64,000 nucleotides of DNA from NCBI GenBank assembly GCA_965211635.1, contig OZ242948.1:1460653-1524652 (forward strand), read 5' to 3'. Within the stretch, counting starts at the first letter, position 1. Each line of letters begins with the position of its first letter. Below are positions 2,126-51,480 of this stretch, in pieces. The translations under genes and the position numbers were made by a program. This DNA is from Dehalococcoidia bacterium. Its GTDB lineage: Bacteria > Chloroflexota > Dehalococcoidia > Bin125. The notes beneath the pieces were generated by a model. That model was not told the DNA's origin. It saw nothing but the letters and a program-made list of their open reading frames with translations, and made no database searches.

Positions 2126-2409
2126 GGATGGCCAATCCACCCCATCCGGGAAGATCGCTGCTCCGGGACTGTATCGAGGAATCCAACCTCAGCATCGCCG
2201 GAGCGGCGGAGCGCCTGGGCATCCAGCAGTACTACCTCGAAGAGGTCTGCCGCTGCGAATCGCCGATCACACCGATGATCGCGATCCGCATCGTCGCAGA
2301 ATTCGGGGGCGGCGCAGAGACGTGGCTGGCGATGCAGTCGGCGCACGACCTGTGGTTGATGCGGGAGATTCTGGCTGTGTTCGAGGGATCTCAGTCGGAG
2401 CAGGCATAA
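2122..2409 (+). CDS. higA: HigA-family HTH (XRE) antitoxin
   Basis: MRMANPPHPG...L..LS...AA..LG......L..........A.R.....G....WL..Q...DLW is the canonical HigA N-terminus and HTH. Confidence 0.75.
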   Translation: MRMANPPHPGRSLLRDCIEESNLSIAGAAERLGIQQYYLEEVCRCESPITPMIAIRIVAEFGGGAETWLAMQSAHDLWLMREILAVFEGSQSEQA

Positions 2410-2467
2410 GAATTGTTAGTGATTGAACGCCAGACGTCTGAGATTCCGACAGCGATCCTGATCACCT

Positions 2468-2587
2468 CGTCATTGCCGCGCTCCGCCGCGGCAATCTCGC
2501 TGTGCGGGGCACGGACGTCTGTGCTGCACGCGGCGAGTGATCCCCGCCTTCGCGGGGACAGGCTCCGCGGCAGGCGCGGGTATGACG
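2468..2587 (+). repeat. Family A dual-hairpin element, copy 1 (variant with inner CCCCGCCTTCGCGGGG hairpin)
   Basis: CGTCATTGCCGCGC..GCGGCAATCTCGC ... GCGGCAGGCGCGGGTATGACG; about 90% identical to the copy at 8658-8777. Confidence 0.8.
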
Positions 2588-2703
2588 TTGGTTGTTTGGG
2601 GGCGGGTACAACGTTGGTTGTTTGGGGGCGGGTACAACGTTGGCTGGATGGGAGCGGGTATGACGCTGGTTGGGCGCGGGTATGACGCTGGTTGGTTGGG
2701 GCG
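2572..2703 (+). repeat. Short tandem repeat, about 25-bp unit x5 (GCGGGTA[TC][GA]ACG[TC]TGGTTG[TG]TTGGGG)
   Basis: Read directly: five consecutive near-identical 22-26 bp units derived from the tail of the family A element. Confidence 0.8.
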
Positions 2704-2728
2704 GAAGTGGCTCTCATTCTGTGGTTTC

Positions 2729-3019
2729 TCAGGCCAAATCGAGATAGAGGTCCCTCCACTCAGGATTGAACTCGTCGATTAGACCGCGACGACGGGCCTT
2801 GCTCCAGCGCTTGATCTGCTTCTCCCGAGCGATCGCCTCGTCCATGCGGTCGTGTGGCTCCATCCAGACCAGCTTGTCGATCTGGTAGCGCCTGGTGAAG
2901 GCGGAACCTTCTCCTCTCTTGTGTTGCCAGACTCGGCGAACGAGGTCGGCGGTGACTCCGGTGTAGATCGCTCCGTGAGGTCGGCTGGCGAGGATGTAGA
3001 CGCAGGGCTGGCGCGGCAT
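2729..3019 (-). CDS. GIY-YIG nuclease family protein (small YhbQ/COG2827-like)
   Basis: CVYILASRP.GAIYTGVT.DL.RRV.QHK.G.G...TRRY.....VW.E......A...EK.IKRWS.A.K..LI...NP.W.DL; 96 aa. Confidence 0.8.
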   Translation of the reverse strand: MPRQPCVYILASRPHGAIYTGVTADLVRRVWQHKRGEGSAFTRRYQIDKLVWMEPHDRMDEAIAREKQIKRWSKARRRGLIDEFNPEWRDLYLDLA

Positions 3020-3049
3020 GGTCGGCAGAGTAGCGTGGGTTCGTCTTCG

Positions 3050-3618
3050 TCACGGCGAGATACCCGCGGCAAGCGCGGGTATGACGGTGGTTGGTGGCGG
3101 GAGAGTGACGGGATTACGCCCCCTCGTCATTGCCGCGCTTGCCGCGGCAATCTCGCCGTGCCGGGTACTGGCGTTGGTCCTGGAAGCGGCGAGATACCCG
3201 CGGCGAGCGCGGGTATGACGGGGTTGGTTAAGCGCGCTTCCCCACTTCGTCATTGCCGCGCTCCGTCGCGGCAATCTCGCCGTGCCGGGTACTGGCTTTG
3301 GTCCTGGTGGCGGCGAGATACCCGCGGCAAGCGCGGGTATGACGGGGGGTCTTGGGTCGCCCCTCCACCTCGTCATTGCCGCGCTCCGTCGCGGCAATCT
3401 CGCCGTGCCGGGTACTGGCGTTGGTCCTGGTGGCGGCGAGATACCCGCGGCAAGCGCGGGTAGGACGGGGGTCTTGGGTCGCCCCTCCACCTCGTCATTG
3501 CCGCGCTCCGTCGCGGCAATCTCGCTGTGCCCCGGTCTCGCGTTGGGACTGGAAGCGGCGAGATACCCGCGGCAAGCGCGGGTATGACGGGGGTTTGGGG
3601 GGCGCGGGTATGACGGTG
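3050..3618 (+). repeat. Tandem array, about 4.6 copies of a 122-123 bp unit built from family A hairpin pairs
   Basis: Unit boundaries at 3125, 3248, 3371 and 3493; unit = CGTCATTGCCGCGCTCCGTCGCGGCAATCTCGCC-spacer-GGCGAGATACCCGCGGCAAGCGCGGGTATGACGG-spacer; the spacers are conserved, so this is not a CRISPR array. Confidence 0.85.
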
Positions 3619-3628
3619 ATCTACGCCG

Positions 3629-6600
3629 TCAGCGGTCCAGGATCGCAGCGACCCTCCGCGCCACCTCCGAGAACCACGACACCTCCGACACGCTCAACCC
3701 CCGGCCCAGCACCTTCGATTCTCGGTAGCTGAGCCACTTCTTGAGGACCTGGTAGCCGCCTAATCGGTATTCCCACACCTCGACCGGCACATCCCGCCAG
3801 TACGCCCGATCGTTCAGATATACGTCTACCACGTCTCCCCGACGCTCGAGCTTGCCCTGGCCGGGCATGACGGCTTGATTGGAGCCGAAGTGGCCCCAGC
3901 CGGCGGTGAGGTGGAAGTCGGCCGGTTGCATGGGGTTGGCGTCGACCGTGGTGGGGACGGCGATGTGGGTGTGGTCGGCGAGGAGGTCGGCGACATCGGA
4001 CTCGGTGTCGAGCAGGCGGGCGAGGCGGTGGCCTCGGGCGGCGGACTGGGCGAGGTCGGCGGGGTCGTCGGGCAGGGGAATGCGGGGCCAGCCCATGCGC
4101 AGACCGCCGGCGTTGGCCTCGCGGTAGGCGGGGTCGTGCAGCGTGGCGAGGACGTGGTGGAAGAGGTCTTCGGGCGAGGCGTCCATGGAGTCGATGTAGG
4201 CCCGCGCCTGCTCGCTCAGGTTGGCGGTGCGCTTGACGCCGTCGACCTCCTCGCCGAGCAGCTCGTCTCGGAGGTAGAGCGGGAAACACGTAGCGCTTCG
4301 ATCCATAAGGTCTAGGCAGCCAATACAAGAAAGAACCTGTGGGGGAGACCATTCTCGTCTGGGCTTCTGTTGGGATACCAAGGTCAGATTGTCGGCGAAT
4401 ACATGTGGACGGTACTTCGGCCGCGGACGGTCCAACAACTCGCTGGCCGGAGCCCAGTAGAGCCAACGTGCATCGAATGGTCGGTACGAGTAGCGGATCA
4501 GTTCTGAGCCATCGACGTCCATGTAAGGGCCCAGTCTCACAGCGAGGAGATCATGGTCAATATCCACGACCAACTCGTCGTTGCCGGTCTTGACTCCTGC
4601 GTAGTAACCGGGGAACAAGTCCGGAAGAGACGGCATGTTAAACCATCCCTTACTTGGTTCGAGCGGGGCAAAGGGGAGCCCGACCTTAGGCTCCGAATCG
4701 ATTTCCTTATACAACTCCACCGGTTCTGTGCCGGCCGAGCATTCCAATGCCTTCAGTTTCTCTACGCCCCAAAGGTCCCTCCATCCAACGCTCGATGCTG
4801 GCTCGTGTTTCTCCTTGCGAACAAGAGTCGCAATCGCCGTACCTACCTGGATGCCGACCGGATCGTCCTTGGTCGAGAAGACGCTCGGATCGGGATCACC
4901 CTCCGGTGTGAGCTTGCCGGTGCGGTACTTGTCGCCGTTGAGGTTGTCGATGCGGATGATGTCGAATGCGTCGAGGTAGCGCTGTCTCATGCCGGGGAAG
5001 GAGAGGCCGTCGAGCCAGGAGTAGTTGCTGATGAAGCAGACAATGCCCTTGCCCGTCTTCTCGGCGATGCGCCGCTCGGCCATGCGGAAGAAGCGCACGT
5101 AGAGGTCGTTGAGTCCCTGGCCCTGCGGCTTGGGCACGTCGGCTCCGGAGACTGGCTGCTTGACCGTGCGGTAGGCGTCCGACAACGCCCGCTCCTCCGC
5201 CACGTCGGGCACGCCGGGGAAGCCGTTGTAGGGCGGGTTGCCGAGCACGACGAGGATCGGGCGCTGCTGCTTGACCTCGTTCGCGCTGCGGCGCTCCTGT
5301 TCTAGCTCGGGGAAGGGCAGCGGCTTGGTCGTGTGCGGCTCCCAGCCGGTCAGGGCGTTGGTCAGGAAGACCCCGGCGCGCTGCTCTGTCGAGAGTCCCG
5401 CGCCCAGGCGCTCCAGCGCGAGGCCGATTTCGAGGTGCGAGACGACGAGCGGCGCGGGCATGATCTCGAACCCAAAGACCCGCGTCGCGGCGGCCTGTCG
5501 GACCGACTCGGCCCAGGTCGCGCCGCCCGAGGCCTGCTCGGTCTCGGCGATCCGGCGCAGCGTCTCGACCAGGAAGGCGCCCGTGCCGCAGCAGGGATCG
5601 AGCACGTAGACGCGCTCGTCGGCAAGGCCCTTGGCGATTCCCAGATCGTCGCGCAGCGCCCGGTCAACCCGGGCGACCATGTAGCGCACGATTTCGCGCG
5701 GCGTGTACCAGACGCCGAGCTGCTTGCGCAGGTCGGGATCGAATGCTTCGAGGAAGGGCTCATAGAAGTACTGCACCGCCTCGCCCTCCGAAAAGCGCTT
5801 GAGAAACGCCTCGCGGTCAACGCGGTCCAGCGCCGCCTCGGTCCAGTCCAGCACCTCGTCCAGCCCCAGCCGTTCCAGCCGGCCGGGATCGGTGATCTGG
5901 TGGAAGAGCATGCGCAGCACCGGCGCGCGCAGCTCGTAGACGGTGTCCTTCCAGCCGAAGCGTCCCGATTTGCCGGCCCGCGCCCAGAGCACCCAGGCGG
6001 CGAAGACTCCGTAGAACAGCGTCTGCACCAGTGTCGAGCGGAAGAACCGGCCGCCGTCTTCGCTCTCGAACGACATCCCCAGCGCCTGCTCGATCGCCTC
6101 GCGGATCGTCTGGAGCGAGTCCTCTTCCTCCGCCGCCTGCTCGACCCGCTGCAAGGCGTCGCGGGCGTAGGAGGCGAGCAAACGGGCGAGGTCGCGCGGT
6201 TCGGAGATCGTCGAGCGGTGCGACATCACGCGCAGCAGGTACTCGCCCAGCGAGATGCCGTGCCGGTTGGCGGCTCGGGTGGTGTGTTGGAGCAGGTCGT
6301 CGAAGGCAGGGATGGAGTCGGCGAGCGAGTAGCGCTCGAGCGTCGCCTTTGCGCCGTCGTTGTCCTGTCCGACCAGCGCGAACTCGCGCAGGTTGGTCAC
6401 GAGGACGAGGTTGCGCGCTTGCCAGTAGCTGTCGACCTGTTCGGAGGCGATCAGCGCGTCGAGGTCGGCGTCGGCGCCCTTGACCTCGACCACGCCGCGG
6501 TCGGGGTCGGTGTTCTCGCCGGAGAAGAATCCGAGGTCGGGTTGGCCGGAGACGGTCTCGCTGTAGTGAACGACGGCGCGCACTTTGGGCGAGAGTTCAT

Positions 6601-6724
6601 CGCCGACGGCGTCGAAGAGGTTGTCGAGCGCGGTGTAGTGGGAGAGCTCGGGTGTCCCGACGCGGCTGCCGGCTGAGATGGCGTCGAGGTACCGCTTGAC
6701 GGCCTGGCGGAGTTCGACGGTCAC
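3629..6724 (-). CDS. MmeI-family Type IIL restriction-modification enzyme (N-terminal PD-ExK-like nuclease, gamma-class N6-adenine MTase, C-terminal TRD)
   Basis: 1031 aa; DPDRGVVEVKGAD (D..EVK) near the N-terminus; motif I VLDPCCGTGAFLV; motif IV LGNPPYNG; C-terminal W.Y.LGGYQVLKKWLSYR as in MmeI/PglX-like enzymes; GTG start overlaps the upstream stop (GTGA). Confidence 0.8.
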   Translation of the reverse strand: MTVELRQAVKRYLDAISAGSRVGTPELSHYTALDNLFDAVGDELSPKVRAVVHYSETVSGQPDLGFFSGENTDPDRGVVEVKGADADLDALIASEQVDSYWQARNLVLVTNLREFALVGQDNDGAKATLERYSLADSIPAFDDLLQHTTRAANRHGISLGEYLLRVMSHRSTISEPRDLARLLASYARDALQRVEQAAEEEDSLQTIREAIEQALGMSFESEDGGRFFRSTLVQTLFYGVFAAWVLWARAGKSGRFGWKDTVYELRAPVLRMLFHQITDPGRLERLGLDEVLDWTEAALDRVDREAFLKRFSEGEAVQYFYEPFLEAFDPDLRKQLGVWYTPREIVRYMVARVDRALRDDLGIAKGLADERVYVLDPCCGTGAFLVETLRRIAETEQASGGATWAESVRQAAATRVFGFEIMPAPLVVSHLEIGLALERLGAGLSTEQRAGVFLTNALTGWEPHTTKPLPFPELEQERRSANEVKQQRPILVVLGNPPYNGFPGVPDVAEERALSDAYRTVKQPVSGADVPKPQGQGLNDLYVRFFRMAERRIAEKTGKGIVCFISNYSWLDGLSFPGMRQRYLDAFDIIRIDNLNGDKYRTGKLTPEGDPDPSVFSTKDDPVGIQVGTAIATLVRKEKHEPASSVGWRDLWGVEKLKALECSAGTEPVELYKEIDSEPKVGLPFAPLEPSKGWFNMPSLPDLFPGYYAGVKTGNDELVVDIDHDLLAVRLGPYMDVDGSELIRYSYRPFDARWLYWAPASELLDRPRPKYRPHVFADNLTLVSQQKPRREWSPPQVLSCIGCLDLMDRSATCFPLYLRDELLGEEVDGVKRTANLSEQARAYIDSMDASPEDLFHHVLATLHDPAYREANAGGLRMGWPRIPLPDDPADLAQSAARGHRLARLLDTESDVADLLADHTHIAVPTTVDANPMQPADFHLTAGWGHFGSNQAVMPGQGKLERRGDVVDVYLNDRAYWRDVPVEVWEYRLGGYQVLKKWLSYRESKVLGRGLSVSEVSWFSEVARRVAAILDR

Positions 6725-7215
6725 TCGCGTCCCACGCCGCCTCGCCAGACGAGCGGCTCGCCGGTTTCCTCGTCCAGGAGGCCGTCAAGGATGGGCGGAT
6801 CGGCGGGGTCGGCCATGGCGGAGTCGAGTTGGGCCTGGGTCAGTCCGATGGCGACGCCTTCGAGTCGGTCGGAGAAGATCGCGCCGCTGATGTCTGCGCC
6901 AAGCAGGTTGGCTCCTGTGAAGTTGGCGCGCCAGAGTTCGGCGCCGTGCAGCACAGTGCGGGAGAGGTTCGCGTTGGTGAAATCGGCGCCGGACATGAGT
7001 GAGCCGGTCAAATCTGAGCCACGAAGATTCGCGTCAACGAACCACTTGTCCTCCGCGATCGCTCCGCGCATGTTTGAGTACGGCCAATCGATGGGAATCG
7101 GTCGCTCGCGCTCTGCGTTCTTGGGATCGGCGCGTATATCGACGATCGCCTGCTGATCACGCCGCATAAACGGGACGGATTTCCTACTGCGTGCTGGATG
7201 ATTGCTGGTCGTCAT
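6721..7215 (-). CDS. Pentapeptide-repeat protein
   Basis: Run of A(D/N)LxG pentapeptides (ANLRGSDLTGSLMSGADFTNANLSRTVLHGAELWRANFTGANLLGADISGAIFSD); ATG at 7215 preceded by GAAGGAG; stop overlaps the start of the R-M gene. Confidence 0.75.
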   Translation of the reverse strand: MTTSNHPARSRKSVPFMRRDQQAIVDIRADPKNAERERPIPIDWPYSNMRGAIAEDKWFVDANLRGSDLTGSLMSGADFTNANLSRTVLHGAELWRANFTGANLLGADISGAIFSDRLEGVAIGLTQAQLDSAMADPADPPILDGLLDEETGEPLVWRGGVGRE

Positions 7216-7642
7216 CAGCTCCTTCACCGTCCCGTTCGAACTTGTCGATCCTGAGTAGTAGGGCGACCTGTAGCTCGTACTCTTCAGGGTAGGCGCTCGC
7301 AAGCTGCTGCAAGGTCCGGGCGGCCGTCTCCCTCACCGATTCATCTGCGCTTTCCAACATCCCGACGGCTCGATGAAAGCGCTCATCCAACTGGGCTCGA
7401 TGGGCTGTTTCCGCCTGTCGTTCGCTGACTCGGCTGCGCCAAATCGCGAGCGGCAGCGCGATCACGGCGGCGGCGATCAGGCCGAAGTTGCGCACCTCGT
7501 CGGACGAGTCCCACCAGATGGCGGTGACGGCGATCAACAGGGCGAGCGCGGCCAGCGTGACCAACGCGAGCCGTGACTCCAGGCGCCAGAGCGCGGCGCG
7601 CACGAGCGCTTCCAACCACAGCAGCGGGTCGCGCCAACTCAC
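7184..7642 (-). CDS. Small membrane protein (2 predicted TM helices, acidic C-terminal tail)
   Basis: Hydrophobic segments LALVTLAALALLIAVTAIWW and FGLIAAAVIALPLAIW; start overlaps the panE stop (ATGA). Confidence 0.5.
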   Translation of the reverse strand: MSWRDPLLWLEALVRAALWRLESRLALVTLAALALLIAVTAIWWDSSDEVRNFGLIAAAVIALPLAIWRSRVSERQAETAHRAQLDERFHRAVGMLESADESVRETAARTLQQLASAYPEEYELQVALLLRIDKFERDGEGADDDQQSSSTQ

Positions 7643-8657: not shown

Positions 8658-8777
8658 CGTCATTGCCGCGCTTGCCGCGGCAATCTCGCTGTGTTGGGCA
8701 CTGATGTCCGCGCTAAACGCGGCGAGTGATCCCCGCCTTCGCGGGGACAGGCTCCGCGGCAAGCGCGGGTATGACGG
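8658..8777 (+). repeat. Family A dual-hairpin element, copy 3 (same variant and orientation as copy 1)
   Basis: CGTCATTGCCGCGCTTGCCGCGGCAATCTCGC...GCGGCGAGTGATCCCCGCCTTCGCGGGGACAGGCTCCGCGGCAAGCGCGGGTATGACGG. Confidence 0.8.
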
Positions 8778-38359: not shown

Positions 38360-38457
38360 CCGTCATACCCGCGCTTGCCGCGGGTATCTCGCCGCAGTTA
38401 ACACGGACGTCGGTGCACATCACGGCGAGATTGCCGCGGCAAGCGCGGCAATGACGG
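38360..38457 (-). repeat. Family A dual-hairpin element, copy 4 (inverted orientation, canonical form)
   Basis: CCGTCATACCCGCGCTTGCCGCGGGTATCTCGCC-spacer-GGCGAGATTGCCGCGGCAAGCGCGGCAATGACGG. Confidence 0.8.
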
Positions 38458-39439: not shown

Positions 39440-39700
39440 GTTCCTATTCGCTCCCCCTTCCAGGGGGAGCTGTCACGTAGTGACTGAGGGGGTCCCTCCG
39501 AGTGTCGCGCATTGGCGATCGCTGGACCGGAGCCCCCCTCTGCCTTCGGCATCTCCCCCCGCTCCGCGGGGGGAGAGGAGATTAGCCTTTGGCATCTCCT
39601 CCCGCGTAGCGGGGGGAGAGGAGATTAGCATTCGGCCTTTCCCCCTGCATAGCGGGAGGAGACCGAGCGGGTCCCCGAGTAAATCGGGGACTGGACGCGT
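39440..39700. repeat. Cluster of five or more family B hairpin units
   Basis: CCCCTTCCAGGGGGAGCTGTCACGTAGTGACTGAGGGGGTCC; GGAGCCCCCCTCTGCCTTCGGCATCTCCCCCCGCTCCGCGGGGGGAGAGGAGATTAGC x2; ... Confidence 0.75.
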
Positions 39701-51329: not shown

Positions 51330-51480
51330 ATCCGCCACTCGCAAGCTACAAGGGTCGCTCCGGCAGCTTGTTGGGGCGACCCTTGTGGTCGCCCGCGCGT
51401 GTGCATGTCCCCGCCTTCGCGGGGACGACCTTGAGGGGTCGCGCTCGCGGCCGACCACAAGGGTCGCCCCTACGAGATCG
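51330..51480. repeat. Family D long imperfect palindrome, copy 2
   Basis: CGACCCTTGTGGTCGCCCGCGCGTG...GTCCCCGCCTTCGCGGGGAC...GGCCGACCACAAGGGTCGCCCCTAC. Confidence 0.75.

Follow-up and report, generated by a model that had tools for sequence, protein, structure and literature searches.

What is a tandem block of hairpin-forming DNA doing between a restriction-modification (R-M) gene and the gene for a small nuclease? The question is raised by a 64,000-nucleotide (nt) stretch of the genome of a Dehalococcoidia bacterium (GenBank assembly GCA_965211635.1, contig OZ242948.1, positions 1,460,653 to 1,524,652), hereafter called the window, in which a repeat array at 3050–3618 separates a gene for an MmeI-like Type IIG restriction-methyltransferase from a gene for a 96-amino-acid (aa) GIY-YIG protein, both on the minus strand. 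Judged from its sequence, the array is very probably a cluster of CGTC-tagged repetitive extragenic palindromes (REPs), or Ssn-related motifs (SRMs), that belongs functionally with the adjacent GIY-YIG gene, a member of the SsnA family of nucleases. By homology with SsnA of Neisseria and its target, the NTS, the repeats may serve as recognition sites of this nuclease in single-stranded DNA (ssDNA). The original prediction had both neighbouring genes right (Table 1) and saw that the GIY-YIG gene adjoins the array; it took that gene for a landmark only, and this part did not stand, since the gene appears to be the cognate partner of the repeats.

The array is made up of one solo hairpin repeat, four inverted hairpin pairs of ~96 bp that follow each other with a period of 122–124 bp and are joined by ~27-nt linkers, and one half-site, in this order along the plus coordinates (Table 1). 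A tandem-repeat search (TRF) gave a period of 123 bp with 3.9 copies and 90% matches at 3122–3599, and the ~4.6 copies of a ~122-bp unit that had been predicted over 3050–3618 are obtained when the solo repeat and the half-site are counted. The predicted unit boundaries at 3125, 3248, 3371 and 3493 fall exactly on the first C of CGTCATTGCCGCG in each unit. Two distances had to be corrected. The array had been placed 5 bp after the R-M stop and 30 bp before the GIY-YIG start; in fact, the stop codon (3629–3631) lies 13 nt beyond the end of the last half-site at 3615, and the solo repeat, which is read in the direction of the GIY-YIG gene, has a core that stops at 3055, 35 nt ahead of the ATG at 3019. 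The array carries four sense motifs on the plus strand and five plus a half-site on the minus strand; they switch strands about every 60 nt, and each strand presents one sense site about every 120 nt of the 570-bp interval. The spacers and linkers of units 2–4 are 89–91% identical between units, as the predicted conservation of the sequences between hairpins required, and a CRISPR array is thereby excluded, its intervening sequences being themselves repeated. Because these units share both spacer and linker, whereas dispersed copies share the arms with spacers that are only loosely related, the array appears to have grown by local tandem duplication of one pair together with its ~27-nt linker, and not by four separate insertions.

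The two hairpins of one unit are a single element in opposite orientations, of the form CGTC-AT(TG/AC)CCGCG-loop5/6-CGCGG(CA/GT)AT-CTCGCC. Read on the plus strand, the unit is CGTC-ATTGCCGCG-loop-CGCGGCAAT-CTCGCCGTG, and on the minus strand it is CGTC-ATACCCGCG-loop-CGCGGGTAT-CTCGCCGC; each unit thus contains two perfect 9-bp stems, ATTGCCGCG/CGCGGCAAT and ATACCCGCG/CGCGGGTAT. The natural unit is an inverted pair with a ~28-nt spacer and its CGTC ends pointing outward. The pair of 9-bp stems had been correctly predicted, but not the loops, which were given as 4 nt long and are either 5 nt (CTTGC, GCAAG, GCGAG) or 6 nt (CTCCGT). Among the 12 full copies in the window, seven have 5-nt and five have 6-nt loops, and both lengths are common across the loci fetched from other genomes. 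The tail is CTC(GCC), not CCA. The arms of a pair are ~87% complementary, in agreement with the near reverse complementarity described before. As ssDNA, the single short hairpins are predicted to fold with –12.1 and –11.1 kcal/mol, and the whole pair could form one long hairpin of –33 to –44 kcal/mol in which the TG/AC differences make two 2-nt bubbles. The difference between TG/CA and AC/GT is compensatory, as had been claimed, in that each short hairpin stays perfect. With the two variable stem positions left free, the motif pattern matched 12 times in the window and not once in 100 shuffles, and all 12 full copies read (C)GTCAT-stem-loop-stem-ATC.

A super-family of CGTC-tagged REPs was defined by Di Nocera et al. 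in 2013 and includes dRS3 of Neisseria and RPE-4 and RPE-6 of Rickettsia (PMC3733652). Its members have an unpaired CGTC, a stem of 8–9 bp that starts with A-T/T-A, a loop of 4–5 nt and a short tail fitting CCA; they reach high copy numbers, mostly as inverted dimers, often heterodimers, with spacers of 20–100 bp (PMC3733652). The window repeats likewise bear an unpaired CGTC tag at one end, directly followed by ATTGCCGCG or ATACCCGCG, with 9-bp stems whose first pairs are A-T and T-A; the loops, of ~5 nt in many copies, and the short unpaired tail resemble the description in part. They also occur mainly as inverted dimers, often heterodimers differing in the stem, with larger clusters being rare and with no transposase associated. 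They depart from the 2013 description in the tail, in the 6-nt length of some loops and in the associated GIY-YIG gene, which was not identified there (PMC3733652). In the 2013 survey, CGTC repeats were recorded from Proteobacteria, Chlorobi, Bacteroidetes, Spirochaetes and Thermotogae, while Chloroflexi had only GTAG repeats (PMC3733652).

The partner of such repeats is known from Neisseria, where SsnA targets the NTS, CGTCATTCCCGCGMAVGCGGGAATCYRG, which overlaps dRS3 (Chenal et al. 2025, PMC11893778). This 94-aa protein has a GIY-YIG domain as its single domain, binds the hairpin solely as ssDNA and in one orientation, and cuts a few nt upstream (PMC11893778). Of the ssnA homologues, 71% have SRMs nearby and 42% have them on both sides, and in N. 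meningitidis the SsnA/NTS system lowers transformation by NTS-bearing DNA (PMC11893778). Repeats of this system are ~28–32 nt long, form a hairpin and have oriented, non-palindromic flanks (PMC11893778). The bases critical in the NTS are a GTC on the 5' side of the palindrome and a C on its 3' side (PMC11893778), and both are kept in the window motif when it is aligned to the NTS consensus. The two systems have in common an oriented repeat with CGTCAT, a GC-rich stem that includes CCGCG, and AT-C following the palindrome; copies in the hundreds that gather around particular genes; a GIY-YIG gene of ~94–96 aa that encodes a single domain and is bracketed by its own motif; and the pairing of different paralogues with different motif variants. 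They differ in the host, which here is one of the Chloroflexota/Dehalococcoidia ('Chloroflex' is absent from the main text of PMC11893778), in the 9-bp stem, 5–6-nt loops and CTCGCC tail of the window repeats, and in the arrangement of the window copies, which are mostly hetero-pairs (TG/CA with AC/GT), four of them in a regular tandem array.

The GIY-YIG protein of the window is 50% identical, without gaps over 92 aa (blastp 1e-34, where E < 1e-10 is asked of a homologue of Neisseria SsnA), to the product of a 94-aa open reading frame (ORF) of N. gonorrhoeae, and its Y8, Y19 and E66 align at identical spacing with Y6, Y17 and E64 of the gonococcal protein, which correspond to the catalytic residues mutated in SsnA (PMC11893778). 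That ORF, which is the best match in PLSDB and has nine exact NTS copies within 3.3 kb, is taken as the SsnA orthologue on account of its length, the Y6/Y17/E64 residues and these nine copies. The PLSDB records from which the SsnA comparison was drawn, NZ_CP119140.1 and NZ_CP119142.1, are 2.17-Mb N. gonorrhoeae 'plasmid' entries that are evidently chromosomes. The family invariants are Y8, Y19, G21, R29, H33, E66 and N85, and the catalytic Y8/Y19/E66 are invariant in 17 homologues. The window protein had no family match in NCBIfam or PADLOC, a sequence search of the PDB returned only distant UPF0213 proteins (1e-6) and no Ssn structure, and an exact look-up found no exact copy in public assemblies.

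Homologues of the window protein were found by tblastn in six fetched blocks; loci fetched from other genomes are given here by L-numbers. At every locus where the protein is at least 61% identical (61–96%), the repeat lies within ~100 bp of the gene on both sides (the window, L062/L112, L113/L114, L074, L039 and L103). In the window, the gene is bracketed by its motif at 3053–3086 and beyond on one side and at 2468–2701 on the other. The sense repeat ends 35–36 nt before the ATG in the window, L112, L113 and L074, and the bracket is perfect in L074, with a repeat at 5156–5187, the gene at 5224–5511 and the inverted repeat at 5554–5585. Homologues with 55% identity, L034 531–821 and L107 6212–6502 (OZ242281.1 and OZ247431.1), are bracketed by another hairpin, CGTCATTCCTGCGCAGGCAGGAATCACG, with a TCCTGC stem. 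Those with 55–59% identity from other lineages are flanked by hairpins of the form CGTCATTCCGGC... or CGTCGTCCCGGC..., on both sides in L115 and L119 (Table 1). Protein and hairpin thus co-vary across lineages. In L034 and L107, the CGTCATTCCTGCGCAGGCAGGAATCACG hairpin has half-sites of its own, and the 8-kb blocks also carry CCGCG-type repeats.

A gene flanked by its own repeats also recalls the REPIN-RAYT systems and the bacterial interspersed mosaic elements (BIMEs; Bertels & Rainey 2011; Nunvar 2010; Ton-Hoang 2012). Inverted doublets that can fold as one long or two short hairpins, dispersed in intergenic DNA and sometimes clustered, are common to all of them, and REPIN-RAYT shares with the window a single-copy gene for a nuclease of ssDNA hairpins, flanked by the same repeats. 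The array might then be a classical REPIN or BIME cluster mobilised by a REP-associated tyrosine transposase (RAYT) of the IS200/IS605 type; the REPIN/BIME layout consists of inverted REP doublets that have a short spacer and at times form clusters (PMC3116915, PMC3333891). We consider this extremely unlikely. The tag is CGTC and not GTAG, and CGTC REPs seem to have no transposase of their own, with no RAYT genes associated in any species surveyed (PMC3733652). A tblastn search with an E. coli RAYT as probe, which is a weak test, covered the window and 0.9 Mb of loci bearing the repeat and gave no hit. It is the GIY-YIG gene that the repeats flank consistently, and this gene would encode a hydrolytic nuclease and not an HUH/Y1 transposase; there is no evidence of transposition.

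If the repeats are targets of the adjacent nuclease, the array could work as follows. When the repeat DNA becomes single-stranded, during replication, repair, uptake or transfer, each repeat would fold into its 9-bp hairpin. The nuclease would bind this hairpin and the oriented bases on either side of it (GTC directly 5' and C directly 3' of the palindrome), and would nick that strand a few nt 5' of the CGTC tag. Since the pairs are inverted and the sense motifs alternate between the strands, the 570-bp interval would be densely set with cut sites on both strands. As has been proposed for Neisseria, recombination and horizontal exchange of the flanking DNA may be affected, in this case where a lineage-specific R-M island ends; self-propagation of the repeat family may be a further effect. 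Two of the functions that the original prediction had listed fit this picture, namely, a protein-binding array, by analogy with the architecture of motifs that SsnA-family nucleases bind and cut as ssDNA, and a proliferating mini-element, the unit being a dispersed multi-copy inverted hairpin pair.

Several points weigh against assigning the array to an SsnA-type system. The published SRM string, HGTCWYN(0-2)YYVSBRHN(0-5)WNVSBRGN(0-2)RNCYNB, matches 0 of the 12 window repeats; the AC/GT type is one substitution away from it and the TG/CA types two, and the NTS and the variants of L115 and L103 do match. The string misses the window repeats because its second half must begin with A/T, where a 9-bp stem with a 5–6-nt loop puts G/C; derived from 29 genomes, it is meant for searching and does not define the SRMs. 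The tail is CTC, the usual one being CCA/CYRG. Cleavage by the 96-aa protein is a prediction from homology, and the consequences for recombination, exchange or repeat propagation are speculative. Finally, the closest relatives available, L112 and L113/L114, lack the array and keep only one repeat upstream of the gene.

These relatives are metagenome-assembled genomes (MAGs) of Dehalococcoidia/Chloroflexota with 86–88% DNA identity to the window. Their gene order is ApbA, one repeat, ssnA and one inverted pair. Between ApbA and the solo repeat, the window has an extra 4.5 kb (3087–7638) that L112 and L113/L114 lack. In this segment lie the Type IIG gene, the four repeat pairs, a pentapeptide-repeat gene and a 152-aa ORF that overlaps the stop of ApbA. 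The GC content of this segment is not deviant and does not tell insertion from deletion. The orthologous junctions of three relatives, L112, L113 and L083, likewise lack the dispersed pair at 8658–8776. The array is thus a lineage-specific feature and no conserved requirement. To count variation in array copy number, metagenomes were scanned twice for relatives at strain level, with patterns taken from the 3' end of the R-M gene and from the junction upstream of ssnA; both scans gave 0 hits. Another presence/absence difference lies beside the repeats: in one relative, L113 (10477–11017) and L114 (8880–9426), a gene for a HigB-like toxin and a small gene that partners it stand between the ssnA-proximal pair and a UDG-family gene, and these two genes are absent in the window and in L112.

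The copies from other genomes also bear on the stems, for which selection on structure had been suggested. In the fetched loci, the two free stem positions are Watson-Crick paired in 174 of 183 instances (AC/GT in 119, TG/CA in 31, TC/GA in 21 and GC/GC in 3, with 9 not so paired), which supports selection on the short stems; such pairing cannot separate DNA from RNA structure. For the long arm-to-arm hairpin, RNAalifold on 23 inverted pairs predicted the fold without covariation (term +0.38; a double change in 1 of 27 pairs), a result that speaks neither for nor against the long hairpin. RNA-level roles have been reported for some REPs of E. coli. The hairpins could regulate the GIY-YIG gene from its 5' untranslated region (UTR), or they could serve the R-M mRNA as a 3'-UTR stabiliser, an attenuator or an insulator. 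The genes on either side of the array are co-directional, z-scores of –2.6 to –8.5 mark the hairpins as stable, REPs commonly lie downstream of genes and are transcribed (PMC3733652), and an effect of this kind could coexist, as a secondary one, with recognition of the repeats by the nuclease. As the main explanation, however, it is improbable. No stem is followed by a T-run and 0 terminator-like sites were found on either strand of 2300–3900, which leaves the terminator stack of the original prediction without support. A search of 2300–3800 against Rfam (E<=10) found no family, only eukaryotic microRNA-precursor models far below their thresholds, that is, long-hairpin noise, and a promoter scan of the array region found nothing. 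The tag and the tail, with their orientation, are conserved in sense copies on the plus and the minus strand alike, and an RNA transcribed from one strand would have no need of this; SsnA does not bind RNA (PMC11893778); and the relatives carry a single repeat at the position of the array. The structured RNA that had been predicted as an option is thus not supported either.

The repeat family extends well beyond this locus. In a scan of one genome per species for exact motif matches, counted in 8-kb genome blocks, the motif was present in at least 111 blocks. Among the matches listed, nearly all come from Dehalococcoidia/Chloroflexota MAGs, several of which, going by record names, stem from sponge metagenome projects, and a few are from Xanthobacteraceae and other Alphaproteobacteria and one from Streptomyces. 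With a relaxed model, these blocks contain 259 repeats, and adjacent pairs are oriented with the tags outward in 71 cases, directly in 27 and with the tags inward in 3. The tags-outward pairs have a median gap of 32 nt, and 56 of the 71 are hetero-pairs, mostly TG/AC or TC/AC; a TG-32-AC pair with a related spacer recurs at at least 23 loci in at least 12 genomes. Few clusters (6 of 149) have five repeats or more, and the alternating nine-repeat cluster of the window is the largest in the sample. A looser scan for CGTC...CTCGC, with about one-third of its matches due to chance, added little to the stem-pairing count.

Three further inverted pairs lie in the window outside the array (Table 1). 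In two of them, a small nested palindrome, TGATCCCCGCCTTCGCGGGGACAGGCTC, stands at the same position in one arm (2536–2563 and 8725–8752), where it replaces the stem ATAC; its core, CCCCGCCTTCGCGGGG, is found twice more in the window, at 51409 and 63466. Another palindromic family, CTCCCCCCGC-loop-GCGGGGGGAG, occurs at 39542–39662 and also at 1257, 55861, 58142, 62583 and 63542; it includes a 43-bp tandem array of 2.8 copies and has neither a CGTC nor a GTAG tag.

Many repeats of the family are accompanied by half-sites, which consist of the CGTC tag and the left stem arm only and form tandem runs with a period of 22–26 nt, up to 15 in a row (Table 1). The proteobacterial locus L119 and N. gonorrhoeae (L121) have them next to ssnA as well. 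The idea that half-site arrays are specific to the flanks of ssnA was rejected, since full repeats all over the family are preceded by tandem half-sites on the strand that they share. They are not mentioned in the main text of the Ssn paper (PMC11893778). As they are located where the nuclease is expected to cut, they could be scars of cleavage and repair or of slippage.

Half-sites and dispersed pairs together bring up another reading, already raised as a hypothesis in PMC11893778, in which repeat-ssnA-repeat is an autonomous element, the ~100-bp inverted pairs are its derivatives, similar to REPINs or to miniature inverted-repeat transposable elements and spread via ssDNA nicks made by SsnA, and the array is a by-product. 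The inverted pairs share the tags-outward geometry with the repeats that bracket the gene, L074 being the perfect case; the TG-32-AC pair recurs as described above; pairs are present or absent between relatives; and tandem half-sites pile up, family-wide, exactly on the predicted cleavage side of full repeats. On the other hand, a GIY-YIG domain that stands alone is not known to carry out transposition, since it hydrolyses DNA and neither strand transfer nor ligation is known for it; at the junctions compared, neither target-site duplications nor clean empty sites were resolved; and the units of the array were copied locally, not inserted singly. We therefore treat this reading as tentative, and rather unlikely on balance. 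Slightly less probable still is the specific proposal that SRM pairs are non-autonomous copies of repeat-ssnA-repeat spread through GIY-YIG ssDNA nicks, an analogue of REPIN-RAYT built on a non-HUH enzyme.

Table 1. Features of the window, with half-site arrays and flanking hairpins of other loci
Feature	Locus	Position	Strand	Remarks
Inverted pair downstream of the GIY-YIG gene	Window	2468–2587		One arm with nested small palindrome TGATCCCCGCCTTCGCGGGGACAGGCTC
Five tandem half-sites	Window	2573–2701	–	Period 26/22 nt; CGTCATACCCGC / CGTTGTACCCGC on minus strand; just downstream of the GIY-YIG stop
Single-domain GIY-YIG gene, SsnA family, 96 aa	Window	2729–3019	–	Pfam PF01541, 6e-15, sole Pfam match
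Solo hairpin repeat, AC/GT stem type	Window	3053–3086	–	CGTCATACCCGCG-CTTGC-CGCGGGTATCTCGCCG on minus strand
Inverted pair 1	Window	3125–3220		TG/CA-type sense on plus (3125–3158), ~28-nt spacer, AC/GT-type sense on minus (3187–3220)
Inverted pair 2	Window	3248–3344		Plus arm with 6-nt loop CTCCGT
Inverted pair 3	Window	3371–3467		One substitution in minus-strand arm: GTCCT for GTCAT
Inverted pair 4	Window	3493–3589		Inverted hairpin pair
Half-site (tag and left stem arm only)	Window	3601–3615	–	CGTCATACCCGCGC on minus strand; 26 nt from preceding full repeat
Type IIG (MmeI-like) restriction-methyltransferase gene	Window	3629–6724	–	Pfam; PADLOC 1e-94
Dispersed single inverted pair	Window	8658–8776		Same nested palindrome TGATCCCCGCCTTCGCGGGGACAGGCTC
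Dispersed single inverted pair, canonical form	Window	38361–38456		
Half-site array	L089	3904–4277
Half-site array	L012	5313–5500
Half-site array	L054	2388–2555
Half-site array	L083	3062–3257
Half-site array	L103	1064–1187
Half-site array	L119
Half-site array	L121
Flanking hairpin	L115			CGTCATTCCGGCGAAAGCCGGAATCCAG
Flanking hairpin	L119			CGTCGTCCCGGCGAAAGCCGGGATCCAG
Flanking hairpin	L120			CGTCATTCCGGCAAAGGCCGGAATCCAG

The class of the repeats (2013) and their partnership with SsnA-type nucleases (2025) have both been published, and the array needs no new mechanism; a link between GIY-YIG nucleases and REPs was accordingly dropped as a novelty (PMC11893778), and our literature search found no further paper linking CGTC REPs with GIY-YIG nucleases. 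What is new here is the host lineage and a motif variant missed by the published search string. The host range of the CGTC-REP/SRM-Ssn partnership is thus extended to sponge-type Chloroflexota/Dehalococcoidia genomes, and surveys that use the published SRM string under-count such systems, because the string misses the variant found in the window. The natural stem variants TG/CA and AC/GT, together with the paralogue of related genomes that has its own motif, provide material for tests of specificity in ssDNA nucleases. The half-site arrays and the differences in presence and absence between relatives are relevant to a possible mobility of the repeats. Were they spread through GIY-YIG nicks, the tandem half-sites, spaced by 22–26 nt on the tag side, would be scars of repeated cleavage and repair, and the question left open in 2013, what propagates the CGTC REPs, would have its answer.

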